A stretch of 11,155 bases of DNA from a virus (IMGVR_UViG_2529292887_000008); one strand, 5' to 3'. Positions 4,159-11,155 are shown, numbered from the stretch's first letter. Made by a program: numbers and translations. Notes: a model not told the origin generated them from the letters alone.

Positions 4159-4458
4159 ATGAAACTTAAATATTCTGGCTTAACTGCCAGTGGCAACACT
4201 CACCCTAAATTTACGCGCGGTGATATTTACCGCGACCAGTACGGCGGCACGGTAATGATTAAGGGCGTGGCGGGACGGTGCGTAACTTACCGCCGTGAAG
4301 GTTACGAATATGATTGCGTGATGCCTGTTTATCAGTTCCGGCGTGATTTTTCTCTGGTACAGACCGCGCCGCATAACGTGCCCACCAGCAACGCCAGGGC
4401 ACGGGCAAACATCCAGAAGCTGAAAACCATGATTAACGGATTCAGGGGTAAAAAATGA
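4159..4458 (+). CDS. Hypothetical protein (99 aa)
   Basis: SD GGAGA 9 nt upstream of ATG 4159; stop overlaps the primase start (ATGA at 4455-4458). Confidence 0.55.
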   Translation: MKLKYSGLTASGNTHPKFTRGDIYRDQYGGTVMIKGVAGRCVTYRREGYEYDCVMPVYQFRRDFSLVQTAPHNVPTSNARARANIQKLKTMINGFRGKK

Positions 4459-6203
4459 AACTGGCACCGAACGTAAAAAAACAGCCACGCGGAATAAAAC
4501 ACAAAGACACAGAGGTAATTATCTTTGCGGGTAGTGATGCCTGGTCGCACGCGAAACAATGGCAGGAGCAGGATGGCCCCGCATCCGGCGATAATGTGCC
4601 GCCTGTGTGGCTTGGGCCAAAGCAGCTTGCCGAACTTGATGCGCTGAAAATTGTTCCGGATGGGAAAAAGCGCGTAAGGCTGTACCAGGCCGGAGAACTG
4701 GATTTAGTGGAGACCAAAAAGATTGGTCAGAAGCTGGCGGCGGCAGATATTCAGGACGCAAATTTTTACCACGAAGGAATGCACGTCCAGAAGTGTGAAA
4801 ACTGGCGGCGCTATCTGAATGCTGAGCGTGAAAATATTGCCGCAGGGCTTACCATGCCGGAGCAGAAAAATACGCAACTGGCACAAATGGCAGACAGTGA
4901 GCGCGCACAGATGCTTGCTGGTCGATTTGATGGCGTTTGTGTGCATCCGGAAAGTGAAATCGTTCACGTATGGCGCGGCGGGGTATGGTGTCCGGTCAGC
5001 ACAATGGAACTTAGCCGCGAAATGGTGGCGATCTATTCAGAGCACAGGGCCACTTTCAGCAAGCGCGTAATCAATAACGCCGTGGAAGCATTAAAAGTTA
5101 TTGCCGAACCAATGGGCGAGCCGTCCGGCGATTTGTTGCCGTTCGCCAATGGTGCGCTTGACCTGAAAACAGGGGAATTTTCCCCGCACACGCCGGAGAA
5201 CTGGATCACCACGCACAACGGCATTGAATACACGCCACCAGCACCAGGGGAGAATATCCGCGACAACGCGCCAAACTTTCATAAATGGCTTGATCACGCA
5301 GCCGGAAAAGACCCGCGCAAGATGATGCGTATATGTGCCGCGCTGTACATGATTATGGCGAACCGGTACGACTGGCAGATGTTTATTGAGGCCACCGGAG
5401 ACGGCGGGAGCGGTAAAAGTACATTCACACACATAGCCAGCCTTCTGGCAGGGAAACAGAACACGGTAAGCGCTGAAATGACATCGCTTGATGATGCTGG
5501 TGGACGTGCGCAGGTTGTCGGGAGTCGTCTTATCGTCCTGGCAGACCAGCCGAAATATACAGGCGAAGGAACGGGCATCAAGAAAATCACGGGCGGCGAC
5601 CCCGTGGAAATAAACCCGAAATATGAAAAGCGTTTCACGGCGGTAATCAGGGCGGTGGTGCTGGCGACCAATAATAACCCGATGATATTCACCGAACGGG
5701 CCGGAGGTGTGGCACGTCGTCGCGTGATTTTCCGTTTCGACAATATTGTTAGTGAGGCCGAAAAAGACAGGGAACTACCGGAAAAAATTGCGGCTGAAAT
5801 CCCCGTTATTATCCGCCGCTTGCTGGCGAACTTTACCGACCCTGAAAAGGCGAGGGCTTTACTACTGGAACAGCGTGACGGTGATGAAGCACTGGCAATA
5901 AAGCAACAGACGGATCCGGTTATTGAGTTTTGCCAGTTCCTGAATTTTCTGGAGGAAGCGCGCGGCCTGATGATGGGTGGCGGTGGTGATTCAGTGAAGT
6001 ACACGACCAGGAACAGCCTTTACCGCGTCTATCTGGCGTTTATGGCATACGCAGGCAGGAGCAAACCGCTAAACGTGGCTGAGTTCAGCAAGGCCATGAA
6101 GCCAGCGGCGAAAGTTTACGGGCATGAATATATTACGCGAAAAGTTAAGGGAGTAACGCAGACCAACGCAATTACAACAGACGATTGCGACGCGTTTTTA
6201 TAA
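4455..6203 (+). CDS. Replication initiator: P4-alpha / D5-family primase-helicase (582 aa)
   Basis: Walker A GDGGSGKST (nt ~5401-5427), Walker B-like RLIVLADQ, and overall resemblance to the phage/plasmid primase P4-family C-terminal domain; SD AGGGG upstream; iteron origin immediately downstream as in PICIs. Confidence 0.88.
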   Translation: MKLAPNVKKQPRGIKHKDTEVIIFAGSDAWSHAKQWQEQDGPASGDNVPPVWLGPKQLAELDALKIVPDGKKRVRLYQAGELDLVETKKIGQKLAAADIQDANFYHEGMHVQKCENWRRYLNAERENIAAGLTMPEQKNTQLAQMADSERAQMLAGRFDGVCVHPESEIVHVWRGGVWCPVSTMELSREMVAIYSEHRATFSKRVINNAVEALKVIAEPMGEPSGDLLPFANGALDLKTGEFSPHTPENWITTHNGIEYTPPAPGENIRDNAPNFHKWLDHAAGKDPRKMMRICAALYMIMANRYDWQMFIEATGDGGSGKSTFTHIASLLAGKQNTVSAEMTSLDDAGGRAQVVGSRLIVLADQPKYTGEGTGIKKITGGDPVEINPKYEKRFTAVIRAVVLATNNNPMIFTERAGGVARRRVIFRFDNIVSEAEKDRELPEKIAAEIPVIIRRLLANFTDPEKARALLLEQRDGDEALAIKQQTDPVIEFCQFLNFLEEARGLMMGGGGDSVKYTTRNSLYRVYLAFMAYAGRSKPLNVAEFSKAMKPAAKVYGHEYITRKVKGVTQTNAITTDDCDAFL

Positions 6204-7361: not shown

Positions 7362-7412
7362 TTGCGCAAAATGCAATCATGATTATAATCATAACTGGAT
7401 GAACATCCAGTT
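7362..7412 (+). promoter_or_regulatory. Promoter of capsid/packaging operon with overlapping palindromic operators
   Basis: -35 TTGCGC 7362-7367, 16-bp spacer, -10 TATAAT 7384-7389; 10-bp palindrome AATCATGATT at 7375-7384; 20-bp inverted repeat AACTGGAT-GAAC-ATCCAGTT at 7393-7412. Confidence 0.5.
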
Positions 7413-9510: not shown

Positions 9511-9686
9511 CGGGTCCTTCCTGGAATTATGGCCCGTTACGGGGCGGCGACCTCGCGCGTTTTCGCTATTTATGAGCCTTTTCAGGGGGGTGGTGGTGGT
9601 TTTGTTGTTTGCTCTATCTTTATGAATGAAAAGGGAAAGATGCAAACAATACACCAACCTGAAGCAGTAATTAAGTTGGTGTATTA
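9511..9686 (+). other. cos site 1 (plus orientation): lambda-like cosQ-cosN with a non-lambda cosB
   Basis: CGGGTCCTTCCTGGAATTATGGCCCGTTACG followed by GGGCGGCGACCT (9542-9553; identical to the lambda 12-nt cohesive end as I recall it) and CGCGCGTTTTCGCTATTTATGA; thereafter diverged, with an 11-bp inverted repeat AATACACCAAC (9648-9658) / GTTGGTGTATT (9675-9685) abutting the terS start. Confidence 0.7.
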
Positions 9687-10229
9687 ATGAAATCTCATCT
9701 GATGAACAAAAAAAACATGGCGAAAAGCTGCCGTGTAAGTGCGACAGCGTTCGACAAGTGGGGAGTGACTCCCGTTGAACGTAAAGGCCGTGAGGCGTTT
9801 TATGATGTTGCCAGCGTGATAGACAATAGGGTTAACAATGCAATTAGCCAGCTTACAAACGACAAAGGCGATATTGATGATGATGAACTCTTACGAGTCA
9901 GGATCAGATTACTGACAGCACAGGCGGAGGCGCAGGAACTTAAAAACGAGCGCGATCGCGGTGACGTGATTGATACTGAGTTTTGCCTGTACGCGCTTTC
10001 AAAGCTGGCGAGTCAGATTTCATCAATCATGGACAGCCTCCCGCTTACTATGCAAAGGAGCTTCCCACAGATTACCCCCGCCATGCTGGACAGGCTTAAA
10101 AGGGAAGTGGTTAAAGCCTGTAATGCCAGTGCCAGAGTTGCCGACAACCTCCCACAGATACTGGCTGATTACTTGAAAGAAACAACCGGAAACGTACCGG
10201 AAAAGTTGCTACAGAAGAAAGGCAAGTAA
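9687..10229 (+). CDS. Small terminase subunit, lambda Nu1-like (180 aa; ATG 9702 aligns better with the Nu1 N-terminus)
   Basis: LTAQAEAQELKNERDRGDVIDTEFCLYALSKLASQISSIMDSLPLTMQRSFPQ and LKREVVKACNASA parallel lambda Nu1 (LTRAQADAQELKNARDSAEVVETAFCTFVLSRIAGEIASILDGLPLSVQRRFPE...FLKRDIIKAMNKAA); N-terminus MNKKNMAKS...FDKWG parallels MEVNKKQLADIFG...QNWQEQG. Confidence 0.82.
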   Translation: MKSHLMNKKNMAKSCRVSATAFDKWGVTPVERKGREAFYDVASVIDNRVNNAISQLTNDKGDIDDDELLRVRIRLLTAQAEAQELKNERDRGDVIDTEFCLYALSKLASQISSIMDSLPLTMQRSFPQITPAMLDRLKREVVKACNASARVADNLPQILADYLKETTGNVPEKLLQKKGK

Positions 10230-10256: not shown

Positions 10257-10451
10257 AGAAAGGATCTGATAATGGCATTTTCTGGCTAAAATGCCTCGTG
10301 TCAGATCCTTTCTTTTTTTAATATTTTCATTGTTAAACAGTCTGTTACAGAGAAGAAGAACGGATCTGACTTTTGCCGGAAAATTTTCATAAACAGATAA
10401 AAACCGCGAGGCCGCCGCCCCGTAACGGGCCATAATTCCAGGAAGGACCCG
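10257..10451 (-). other. cos site 2 (minus orientation): lambda-like cosQ-cosN-cosB with altered R elements
   Basis: Reverse complement reads CGGGTCCTTCCTGGAATTATGGCCCGTTACG-GGGCGGCGGCCT-CGCGGTTTTTATCTGTTTATGAAAATTTTCCGG...CCGTTCTTCTTC...AAAAGAAAGGATCTGACA...TCAGATCCTTTCTC, collinear with lambda cosN-cosB (R3/I1/R2/R1) but with GGATCTGA-type R elements at 10262-10269, 10301-10308 and 10362-10369; cosN complement at 10409-10420. Confidence 0.7.
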
Positions 10452-10484: not shown

Positions 10485-10766
10485 ATGACAGAAGCCGAAC
10501 TACTGCGATTAATCCGCCGCGTTACCGGAATCAGCCAGCAGCATGACGAACAGGGCACGCAACCGGACAGCGTGACCGCTGAAAATTATGCGCGTGTTGT
10601 TGCTGAGGTGATGCGCCGTGATGGTATTGAGCTTAACGGCGTGGATATGCGCAACATACGAACCAGAGTCCTTGAGTTGCTGGCATACCGTCGCCGCGTG
10701 GAGATGTATCGGGAGAAGGAGAAAATCACGTACCACTGGAAGAAGCCGGAACGGTTGCGGCGGTAA
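10485..10766 (+). CDS. Hypothetical protein (93 aa)
   Basis: SD GGGGGG 4 nt upstream of ATG 10485; protein-like composition; unknown family. Confidence 0.5.
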   Translation: MTEAELLRLIRRVTGISQQHDEQGTQPDSVTAENYARVVAEVMRRDGIELNGVDMRNIRTRVLELLAYRRRVEMYREKEKITYHWKKPERLRR

Positions 10767-10850
10767 CTCACTGAGATTAAAGCAAAGCTCAAAATTGCGC
10801 TGGCTGAATGATCATTATGATTACTTATGTTTACGCAGATGATTAAGGCC
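10762..10850. repeat. Direct repeat copy 1 (~80 bp) with embedded palindromes
   Basis: CGGTAACT...TTAAAGCAAAGCtCAAAATTGCGCTGGCTGAATgATCATTATGATTAC[ttatgtttac]GCAGATGATTAAGG; contains AATCATTATGATT (10811-10823). Confidence 0.6.
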
Positions 10851-10893
10851 TAAACCGTTGATTATTCCACAATCCCCCATTGGGGGAAGCTGG

Positions 10894-10971
10894 CGGTAAC
10901 TGGTTGAACTTAAAGCAAAGCGCAAAATTGCGCTGGCTGAATAATCATTATGATTACGCAGATGATTAAGG
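10894..10971. repeat. Direct repeat copy 2 (~78 bp) with embedded palindromes
   Basis: CGGTAACT...TTAAAGCAAAGCgCAAAATTGCGCTGGCTGAATaATCATTATGATTACGCAGATGATTAAGG; contains AGCGCAAAATTGCGCT and AATCATTATGATT (10944-10956). Confidence 0.6.
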
Positions 10972-11155
10972 AATGACCGAAGGCGGAAATTCGCCTGTGG
11001 TTGATGGGGGAGTTGCAGATCTGCAACTCGACCATGAAATTACGGAAACTACCCGTAGTTTGGGTAGTAAGAGCAACACCCAGATTTTGGGGCTTACTCG
11101 TGATACCCAAATTTGGGGTATCGGCGGCAACCATAACGACTTTCGTTACGGTTGA

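Follow-up and report, generated by a model that had tools for sequence, protein, structure and literature searches.

The pair of direct repeats of about 80 bp near the right-hand end of IMGVR_UViG_2529292887_000008, an 11,155-nt stretch of viral DNA that was analyzed whole (the window), consists of two adjacent paralogous units of a satellite-specific, non-coding array located at the right end of many E. coli PICIs. This array of palindromes and IHF-consensus sites is previously undescribed; full-text searching of the PICI literature returned no description of it. We read it as a satellite-specific palindromic array, predicted to bind IHF and resembling BIME-1/RIP, at the untranslated end of the island operon. 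We give this reading a probability of about 0.5, with high confidence in the anatomy and low confidence in the function. It is supported because the array and the gene before it, which encodes a 93-aa protein, recur together behind four packaging modules, with strict orientation and spacing, a consensus that is kept, and stems that are compensated.

The window is a cos PICI of the EcCICFT073 type. Pfam and PHROG matches identify a tyrosine integrase (1-1230; P4/lambda type and the sole integrase of the island), a D5-type primase (4455-6203), an SSB, lambda E-like and D-like capsid proteins, and a Nu1-like protein (Rpp, 9687-10229), and lambda-type cosN 12-mers lie at 9542-9553 (plus strand) and 10409-10420 (minus strand). 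Int, an alpA-type regulator, primase, capsid E/D, Rpp, cosN, and an att site of its own are all found in the island. The published EcCICFT073 encodes a capsid protein (c1499), a decoration protein (c1500), and RppA (c1503) and has two cos sites (PMC6092414; PMC6739421); a lambda-type cos layout has been described (PMC6739421), and the published cos1 and cos2 clones function as short fragments (PMC6092414; PMC6739421). A right end 99.9% identical to that of the window was found in E. coli RM10466 (L001 in our series of island right ends), where the island is inserted in tqsA.

The last conserved gene of the island (10485-10766, plus strand) encodes the 93-aa protein, a member of phrog_1561 without a Pfam domain. 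Its family is narrow (37 clusters at 50% identity), and the C-terminal WKKPERLRR is invariant; the AlphaFold model has three helices and is of poor quality (pLDDT 66). The matches listed in a search of the protein against genome contigs included one Shigella locus, and the phage collection gave one weak protein match. A preprint on cf-PICIs describes a hypothetical gene, '1792', whose mutant transfers poorly; it may or may not be the 93-aa gene.

By alignment, copy 1 of the repeat (array unit 1) spans 10759-10848 (90 nt) and copy 2 (array unit 2) spans 10892-10971 (80 nt), with a start-to-start spacing of 133. The gapped alignment has 73 identities over the 80 shared positions and a single 10-nt indel; its ungapped blocks are 10759-10824 against 10892-10957 (66 nt, 89%) and 10825-10848 against 10948-10971 (24 nt, 96%). 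The preliminary description of this DNA, which had placed direct repeats of about 80 bp here, is borne out, and so is its statement that the 93-aa ORF stops where they begin: the copies are homologous from GGCGGTAAC on, a sequence that takes in the TAA (10764-10766), so that the stop codon lies inside the first array element. That description also had the copies near-identical apart from a 10-bp indel; the indel is there, but near-identical is slightly generous for copies with seven mismatches, five of which fall within the first 17 nt. A tandem duplication in copy 1 (TTATGATTAC/TTATGTTTAC, 10815-10834) accounts for the indel. It is older than the island of the window, since a perfect copy of the same duplication is present in a related island. 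TRF detects only this 10-nt duplication; it is blind to the larger repeat because the 133-nt period is present in just 1.6 copies and the units are divergent.

The DNA between the two copies (10849-10891, minus strand) is itself a complete element of class 1. It holds AATCAACGGTTTA (10851-10863, minus strand), the one perfect IHF consensus of the whole window, and 9 nt from it the palindrome TCCCCCATTGGGGGA (10873-10887). The two repeat copies carry degenerate IHF-like motifs, with TGAGA and TGAAC, respectively: TAACTCACTGAGA in copy 1 (10764-10776, in plus-strand reading) and TAACTGGTTGAAC in copy 2 (10897-10909). As to the palindromes named earlier, that of the spacer and the two of copy 2 (AGCGCAAAATTGCGCT, 10919-10934, and TAATCATTATGATTA, 10942-10956) proved perfect when checked, but in copy 1 the first (AGCTCAAAATTGCGCT, 10786-10801) has one mismatch, AGCTC...GCGCT, and the second (AATGATCATT/ATCATTATGAT, 10807-10821) is shorter than its counterpart in copy 2. 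Palindromes continue through the distal part of the region (10972-11155), with GGCGGAAATTCGCC at 10982-10995, GAGTTGCAGATCTGCAACTC at 11010-11029, AAACTACCCGTAGTTT at 11046-11061, CCCAAATTTGGG at 11106-11117, and TAACGACTTTCGTTA at 11134-11148; in the RM10466 island the palindrome-dense DNA runs about 90 nt beyond the position of the window end. Between 10767 and 11155, perfect palindromes whose arms reach 6 bp or more number seven, against 0.37 in shuffled sequence (maximum 3) and no more than three in any other 389-nt stretch of the window.

The basic array element is about 50 nt long and reads, on the plus strand, (G/C)TAAC-N3-4-TTGAT-ATTYYCG, then about 10 nt, then a palindrome. The minus-strand reading of its first part, WATCAANNNNTTR, is the IHF core consensus. 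A scan of 17 distinct arrays (10.5 kb) for this consensus gave 38 occurrences, all of them on the minus strand, compared with 0.23 after shuffling; the constant orientation of the elements is partly a result of tandem duplication itself. An analysis that started from the palindromes, and so avoided selecting on the motif, found the perfect consensus upstream in 39 of 211 distinct contexts, at one offset (+/-1) in 36 of the 39. The four N positions vary (CGGG, CCAG, CGGT, ACAG, CTAC, CTCG, and GTTA) while ATCAA and TTA are kept, and the TTA of the first consensus doubles as the stop codon of the 93-aa gene in almost every island. IHF binding is predicted from this consensus of nine specified bases; the conserved TTGATATT block could instead be the target of a different nucleoid protein.

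The palindromes of the elements are 13-16 bp long, with GC-rich arms and an A/T center, and 37 distinct palindrome sequences occupy the same position (for example TCCCCCATTGGGGGA, CCTCAATTTGAGG, CCACAGACTGTGG, CAGCCAACGGCTG, CCTGCAATGCAGG, AGCGCAAAATTGCGCT, AGCTCAAAATTGAGCT, and GCCCAAAAATGGGT); further palindromes are interspersed in the array. Elements of the spacer type with other stems gave 24 aligned copies. Among these, 87.5% of cells are paired, compared with 63% after shuffling (0 of 500), percentages inflated because the set was preselected for at least four of six pairs and the elements are mutual relatives. Double-change cells number 33 compared with 11.3 in shuffles (0 of 500), and the covariation score is 0.572 compared with 0.148 in shuffles and at most 0.149 for slid partners; despite the preselection and the relatedness, the compensatory changes in the stems are real. 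The window shows a half-step of such a change in the first palindrome of the repeat, with AGCTC...GCGCT in copy 1 and AGCGC...GCGCT in copy 2; another right end has the compensated AGCTC...GAGCT (AGCTCAAAATTGAGCT, L008). The array beside a 93-aa homolog of only 46% identity has new N4 sequences and new stems; its five consensus sites are all on the minus strand, with a palindrome after each. The array is a structured stretch under apparent selection.

Right ends were drawn from complete genomes, assemblies, and IMG/VR contigs, and 50 distinct arrays were analyzed. The 93-aa gene is the final gene behind at least four packaging modules (Rpp with capsid E/D; the HNH-TerS-TerL module of cf-PICIs; Terminase_2 with capsid; and a ClpP-capsid fusion) in islands at tqsA, phoQ, clpS, and other att sites. 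On its 3′ side lies a non-coding mosaic of 400-900 bp, that combines a small repertoire of short modules in varying order and number, with zero to about six array units per island. Copy 2 of the window is present as a single copy, with a different unit before it, in three right ends (L002, L019, and L021), copy 1 is found in other combinations (for example L024), and the exact arrangement of the window stands behind both Rpp-type and cf-PICI modules, at three att sites. Units that are single in some islands and paired in others make the direct repeat two paralogous units that happen to adjoin here. One island has the 93-aa gene and no array (L026) and another has the array without an adjacent 93-aa gene (L083); the array is therefore dispensable and separable from the gene.

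Of 5426 genomes, 518 and 974 contained array units (1-6 and 1-4 places in each, respectively), and about 90% of complete E. coli genomes lack the unit. With so few copies it does not qualify as a dispersed repeat of the host, and all of the contexts inspected proved to be PICI right ends. The unit belongs to the island, and neither of the possibilities raised against it in advance, that it would prove a common host intergenic repeat or be absent from all related elements, was borne out. A DNA search of the phage collection matched only at the cos site, so the module is not phage-borne. The single match in the plasmid collection was set aside; the record (32.5 kb) carries chromosomal genes and a cf-PICI and is not a real plasmid.

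Several roles for the region had been put forward on its first description, and none of the mechanisms offered is supported. The idea of duplicated promoters heading accessory genes beyond the window, or of small genes in the repeats themselves, is the least credible of the main rivals. For small genes one can cite the 52-aa hypothetical protein that RefSeq calls at the window end, where a plus-strand ORF of 60 aa lies at 10973-11155, and the hydrophobic stretches, which could be those of small peptides, in the minus-strand ORFs (one of 74 aa). But neither the 60-aa nor the 74-aa ORF has a Pfam or PHROG match; the plus-strand ORF loses its start in L008, L041, and L043, all of which retain the palindromic module, and in L016 and L037 it shifts frame and runs into a different C-terminal tail. 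The minus-strand ORFs continue into whatever module comes next, and a hand count of substitutions between variants found them mostly non-synonymous in all frames examined. The array region is non-coding, and the 52-60-aa "hypothetical protein" is probably spurious. The promoter-like hexamers reported in the repeats were not recovered: a scan for the sigma-70 consensus (-35/-10, 16-18 nt spacing) finds no site on either strand of 10762-11155, and sigma-70-like sites are also lacking in the full right end of the RM10466 island and in the six-element array of L004. The right-end location, where satellites tend to carry cargo, was correctly recognized, but the near-identical RM10466 island, which extends the analysis past 11155, has no cargo gene there and no conserved ORF; the interrupted host gene is reached after only some 300 bp of non-coding DNA. 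An accessory role at att, in which the array would be an extended attP arm whose IHF bends aid integrase or excisionase, is largely refuted and has only a slight chance of being right. IHF sites are classical parts of att arms, as in lambda attP, and of the two sides of the last gene the array occupies the one nearer att; against this, the sequences common to both island junctions (arm-type repeats CGGTGTAGTCACTGGTGTAGT and TTGTTCCACGTTGTTTCA and the 9-bp core ATAACAGCA) lie 400-490 bp beyond the array at attR, the core at about 490 bp. A counterpart of the unit, for which a search of the left flank upstream of int had been suggested, is absent from that flank and from the rest of the 28.7 kb around the island. 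Units also differ in number and kind at the same att site, while an identical array occurs at tqsA, phoQ, and clpS. A cis site for packaging is a shade less probable again, whether for IHF-assisted assembly of terminase or Rpp, as an accessory on the cosQ side, or in protection of the first-injected end. Lambda cosB does use an IHF site, and the array is found to the cosQ side of cosN (10409-10420, minus strand), 340-560 bp away, which would make it the last DNA packaged. Yet the whole 93-aa gene stands between that cosN and the array, no further cosN-like 12-mer is found inside the repeats, and the candidate cosB elements, three GGATCTGA repeats, are beyond cosN on the side away from the array; moreover, the same array follows terL in the capsid-forming HNH-TerS-TerL islands and is present in Terminase_2 and ClpP-capsid islands, all of which package by other systems. 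The partition site that had also been suggested finds no partition genes in the island.

Two further explanations deal with the array itself, and both are unlikely. The stronger of them holds that the array is selfish or neutral repeat debris of no use to the island, in the form of REP/MITE-like mini-elements or recombination scars at a cargo hotspot. Expansion and contraction would fit the range from no units (as in L026) to about six and the shuffling of modules into a mosaic, and debris is also consistent with the slippage duplication that adjoins a palindrome and with the reuse of the 3′ end of the 93-aa gene, GGCGGTAAC, by the first unit. Such debris would not, however, preserve the exact positions of the IHF consensus while the N positions drift, hold the spacing fixed, restore palindromes through double changes, or keep the architecture beside a gene diverged to 46% identity; the island has no RAYT or IS200/IS605 TnpA transposase, and copies outside PICI right ends were not found in any of the contexts inspected. 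A structured RNA, either the 3′ UTR of the operon or a product of the other strand, is somewhat less probable still; it would serve as an mRNA stabilizer, a source of sRNA, or a sponge for protein or sRNA, and the "IHF consensus" would be an RNA motif. The array is directly downstream of the last gene, no plus-strand terminator was found between the 93-aa gene and attR, the stems show compensatory changes, and the sequence folds with far greater stability than its shuffles do (z = -6.75 for one strand and -6.83 for the other). But the two strands fold alike, and single stem mismatches (6 G.T compared with 9 A.C) show no G.U bias for either; unlike a typical structured RNA, such strand symmetry favors a feature at the level of DNA, or leaves the choice of strand undecidable, and perfect palindromes of this kind are compatible with a role of either DNA or RNA structure. 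The palindromes are also perfect through their centers, which RNA hairpins do not need, and the best-conserved block fits a DNA-binding consensus. Rfam 15 gave nothing relevant over the whole window at E<=1, the best overlap with the region being manA RNA (18.2 bits against a gathering score of 55.2; E = 0.41), and the U-tailed terminators typical of Hfq sRNAs are lacking.

A number of narrower candidates were tried and rejected. Minus-strand terminators were dropped, a T-rich tail being present only in the AAAGCAAAGCGC... variant. A sponge of the CsrA type was rejected with GGA motifs confined to one element class, and small toxins or His-rich peptides with ORFs that are not conserved. For mimicry of CRISPR repeats there is one palindrome with a 9-nt, chance-level resemblance to the type I-E repeat. 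Resemblance to the nic region of an oriT or to lambda-operator decoys is no more than superficial. As for a type III toxin-antitoxin system or a CRISPR-like array, the units are divergent and of variable length, and no toxin or cas gene was found in the island.

Under the reading that we prefer, a BIME-1/RIP-like array predicted to bind IHF, the protein would bind each core and sharply bend the DNA beside a palindrome prone to form a hairpin or cruciform, and the iterated elements would turn the DNA that closes the long island operon into a compact nucleoprotein segment. By analogy with BIME-1/RIP, such a segment may attenuate or insulate the transcription leaving the operon, which has no canonical terminator before attR; the boundary thus buffered would be with attP and int in the excised circle and with host genes in the integrated state. 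The array might also provide the island transcript with protective 3′ stem-loops. Recombination between conserved parts of the units would duplicate, delete, and reshuffle them, with copy number set by unequal recombination, and the window would represent one local duplication plus the 10-nt slippage duplication within copy 1. Apart from the extra unit that it supplies, the duplication itself probably does nothing for the island.

A more ambitious proposal is that the 93-aa gene and the array form a conserved, satellite-specific cis/trans module needed by E. coli PICIs of every packaging type, in which the small, basic-tailed protein acts on the array as the site of a common step. We regard this as a long shot, with poorer prospects than either repeat debris or a structured RNA, though better ones than a role at att or in packaging. 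Candidate steps would be processing of replication concatemers, control of int after circularization, and protection of incoming DNA, and the site would be structure-dependent, a hairpin or cruciform plus IHF.

Among known systems, the closest analog of the array is BIME-1/RIP (RIB) of E. coli, in which REP palindromic units stand on either side of an IHF-binding "L" motif, as a rule where a transcription unit has its 3′ end; REP (PU) units are imperfect palindromes of about 35-40 bp, and the function of BIMEs is still debated. In both, short extragenic palindromes are combined with an IHF consensus and follow the final gene of an operon, and both are iterated, non-coding, and without a canonical terminator tail. 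An adjacent IHF consensus and a place at the 3′ end of a transcription unit are thus found in the array, but the REP consensus and the dispersion of that family are not. The array palindromes are perfect, variable, and only 13-16 bp long, and do not resemble the REP consensus in a comparison by eye. The IHF site is about 10 nt to one side of each palindrome rather than between two inverted units, the array occupies 1-6 places per genome at satellite right ends only, whereas BIME-1 is dispersed over the chromosome in hundreds of copies, and there is no associated RAYT transposase as in REP systems.

Other comparisons are more distant. The IHF sites of the lambda attP arms and of cosB (I1) share the core consensus WATCAANNNNTTR with the array and likewise belong to a mobile element dependent on an integrase and on cos packaging; unlike them, the array lies outside the att arms and not on the cosB side of cosN, and its copy number is variable and independent of the type of integrase or packaging. 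Integron attC arrays are also tandem series of palindromes conserved in structure and variable in sequence, with short conserved flanks (..TAAC/GTTG..) and modules that are apparently exchangeable, but the array has no IntI, attI, or ORF cassettes, its palindromes are perfect and lack the extrahelical bases by which attC folding is defined, and its units are 50-130 nt long. The Correia (CREE) elements of Neisseria are small, palindromic, non-coding repeats with a functional IHF site that can affect transcription or RNA processing; they are dispersed, with terminal inverted repeats and target-site duplications, whereas the array is tandem and local and has no terminal inverted repeats. In the ends of IS200/IS605 elements, PATEs, and REP/RAYT systems, a hairpin is combined with a short conserved tetra- or pentanucleotide (TTAC, TTGAT), and the conserved TAAC...TTGAT of the array, at a fixed distance from a variable hairpin, resembles ends of the IS200/IS605 type. 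There is, however, no Y1 transposase in or near the island, the rest of the genome has no copy, and the conserved motif is a better fit to the IHF consensus than to a cleavage site. This resemblance, like that to the Correia elements, is only a lead.

Studies of PICIs have concentrated on induction, capsid remodeling, and packaging, and the DNA between the last gene and attR has so far been treated as empty. The array offers a sequence signature for PICI right ends and a warning to annotators about the 52-60-aa ORF; even if it were inert, the promoter, att, and partition ideas could still be dropped. Its presence in islands with four unrelated packaging strategies makes it a new, testable cis-element of PICIs. 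It may also be a further example of the combination of IHF sites with palindromes, and a small, deletable, and inducible model of BIME architecture.

On either side of the Nu1-like rpp gene the window carries a lambda-type cosN 12-mer, one on the plus strand (9542-9553) and the other, oppositely oriented, on the minus strand (10409-10420); the published arrangement of cos1 and cos2 in EcCICFT073 matches this pair around rpp (PMC6092414, PMC6739421). The second cosN reads GGGCGGCGGCCT in the window and GGGCGGCGACCT in the island of E. coli RM10466 (L001), a single-base difference that lies within the cohesive end; the RM10466 version is exactly the lambda sequence, and that island is otherwise 99.9% identical to the window. 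Three copies of GGATCTGA (10262-10269 and 10362-10369 on the plus strand, 10301-10308 on the minus strand), compared with 0.17 in shuffled sequences, all fall in the interval that runs from the rpp stop codon to the minus-strand cosN, which is the expected place of cosB. The cosB of PICIs is so far undefined in the literature, and these repeats are candidates for its Rpp-TerS recognition (R-like) elements.

The last gene behind the packaging module (10485-10766) encodes a 93-aa protein of phrog_1561; the gene is terminal behind four unrelated PICI packaging modules and is essentially restricted to Escherichia and Shigella satellites. The C-terminus of the protein is basic and invariant (WKKPERLRR), and an AF2 model predicts three helices (pLDDT 66). 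A preprint on capsid-forming PICIs (cf-PICIs) describes impaired transfer on loss of a hypothetical gene, "1792," which may or may not correspond to the 93-aa gene. The stop codon of the gene is also the TTA of an IHF consensus in the adjoining array of short palindromes and IHF motifs. An ORF of 52-60 aa at the window end (10973-11155; 10997-11155 in the RefSeq annotation) overlaps five of these palindromes, and its start codon is missing or its frame altered in several related islands; this "hypothetical protein" is probably an annotation artefact.

The same array elements are found without an adjoining 93-aa gene in an IMG/VR contig (L083, 12420-12720, minus strand), with the host junction on one side and a 95-aa ORF (a putative perC-like gene) on the other, upstream of alpA, a placement that differs from the usual position 3' of the 93-aa gene. 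The 32.5-kb record "plasmid pD17EC0246-3" (CP088587.1), deposited as circular, contains the whole right half of a cf-PICI together with mdtJI, ydgD, asr, mlc, and clcB, which are chromosomal genes; the record probably represents a chromosomal segment, mis-assembled or mis-assigned.

Both junctions of the tqsA-inserted RM10466 island share a 9-bp core, ATAACAGCA (L001 2937-2945 and 15069-15077), and repeats CGGTGTAGTCACTGGTGTAGT and TTGTTCCACGTTGTTTCA, likely integrase arm-type sites, lie on both sides of the island (L001 3073-3093 and 14972-14992); all are outside the window.

The perfect palindromes ATGATTATAATCAT and AACTGGATGAACATCCAGTT directly adjoin each other at 7379-7412, just upstream of the 68-aa/capsid gene block, and could be an operator or terminator where the morphogenesis genes begin.

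Chi (GCTGGTGG) occurs nine times in the 11-kb window, compared with 0.45 in shuffled sequences, a density several-fold above the E. coli average. Sequence matches are on the plus strand at 885, 2041, 2795, 5496, 6827, and 8524 and on the minus strand at 4382, 5235, and 7161; an additional conserved minus-strand Chi (CCACCAGC) is found in the array tail just past the window (about L001 14830). These sites could protect the cos-ended or rolling-circle DNA of a Gam-less satellite from RecBCD.
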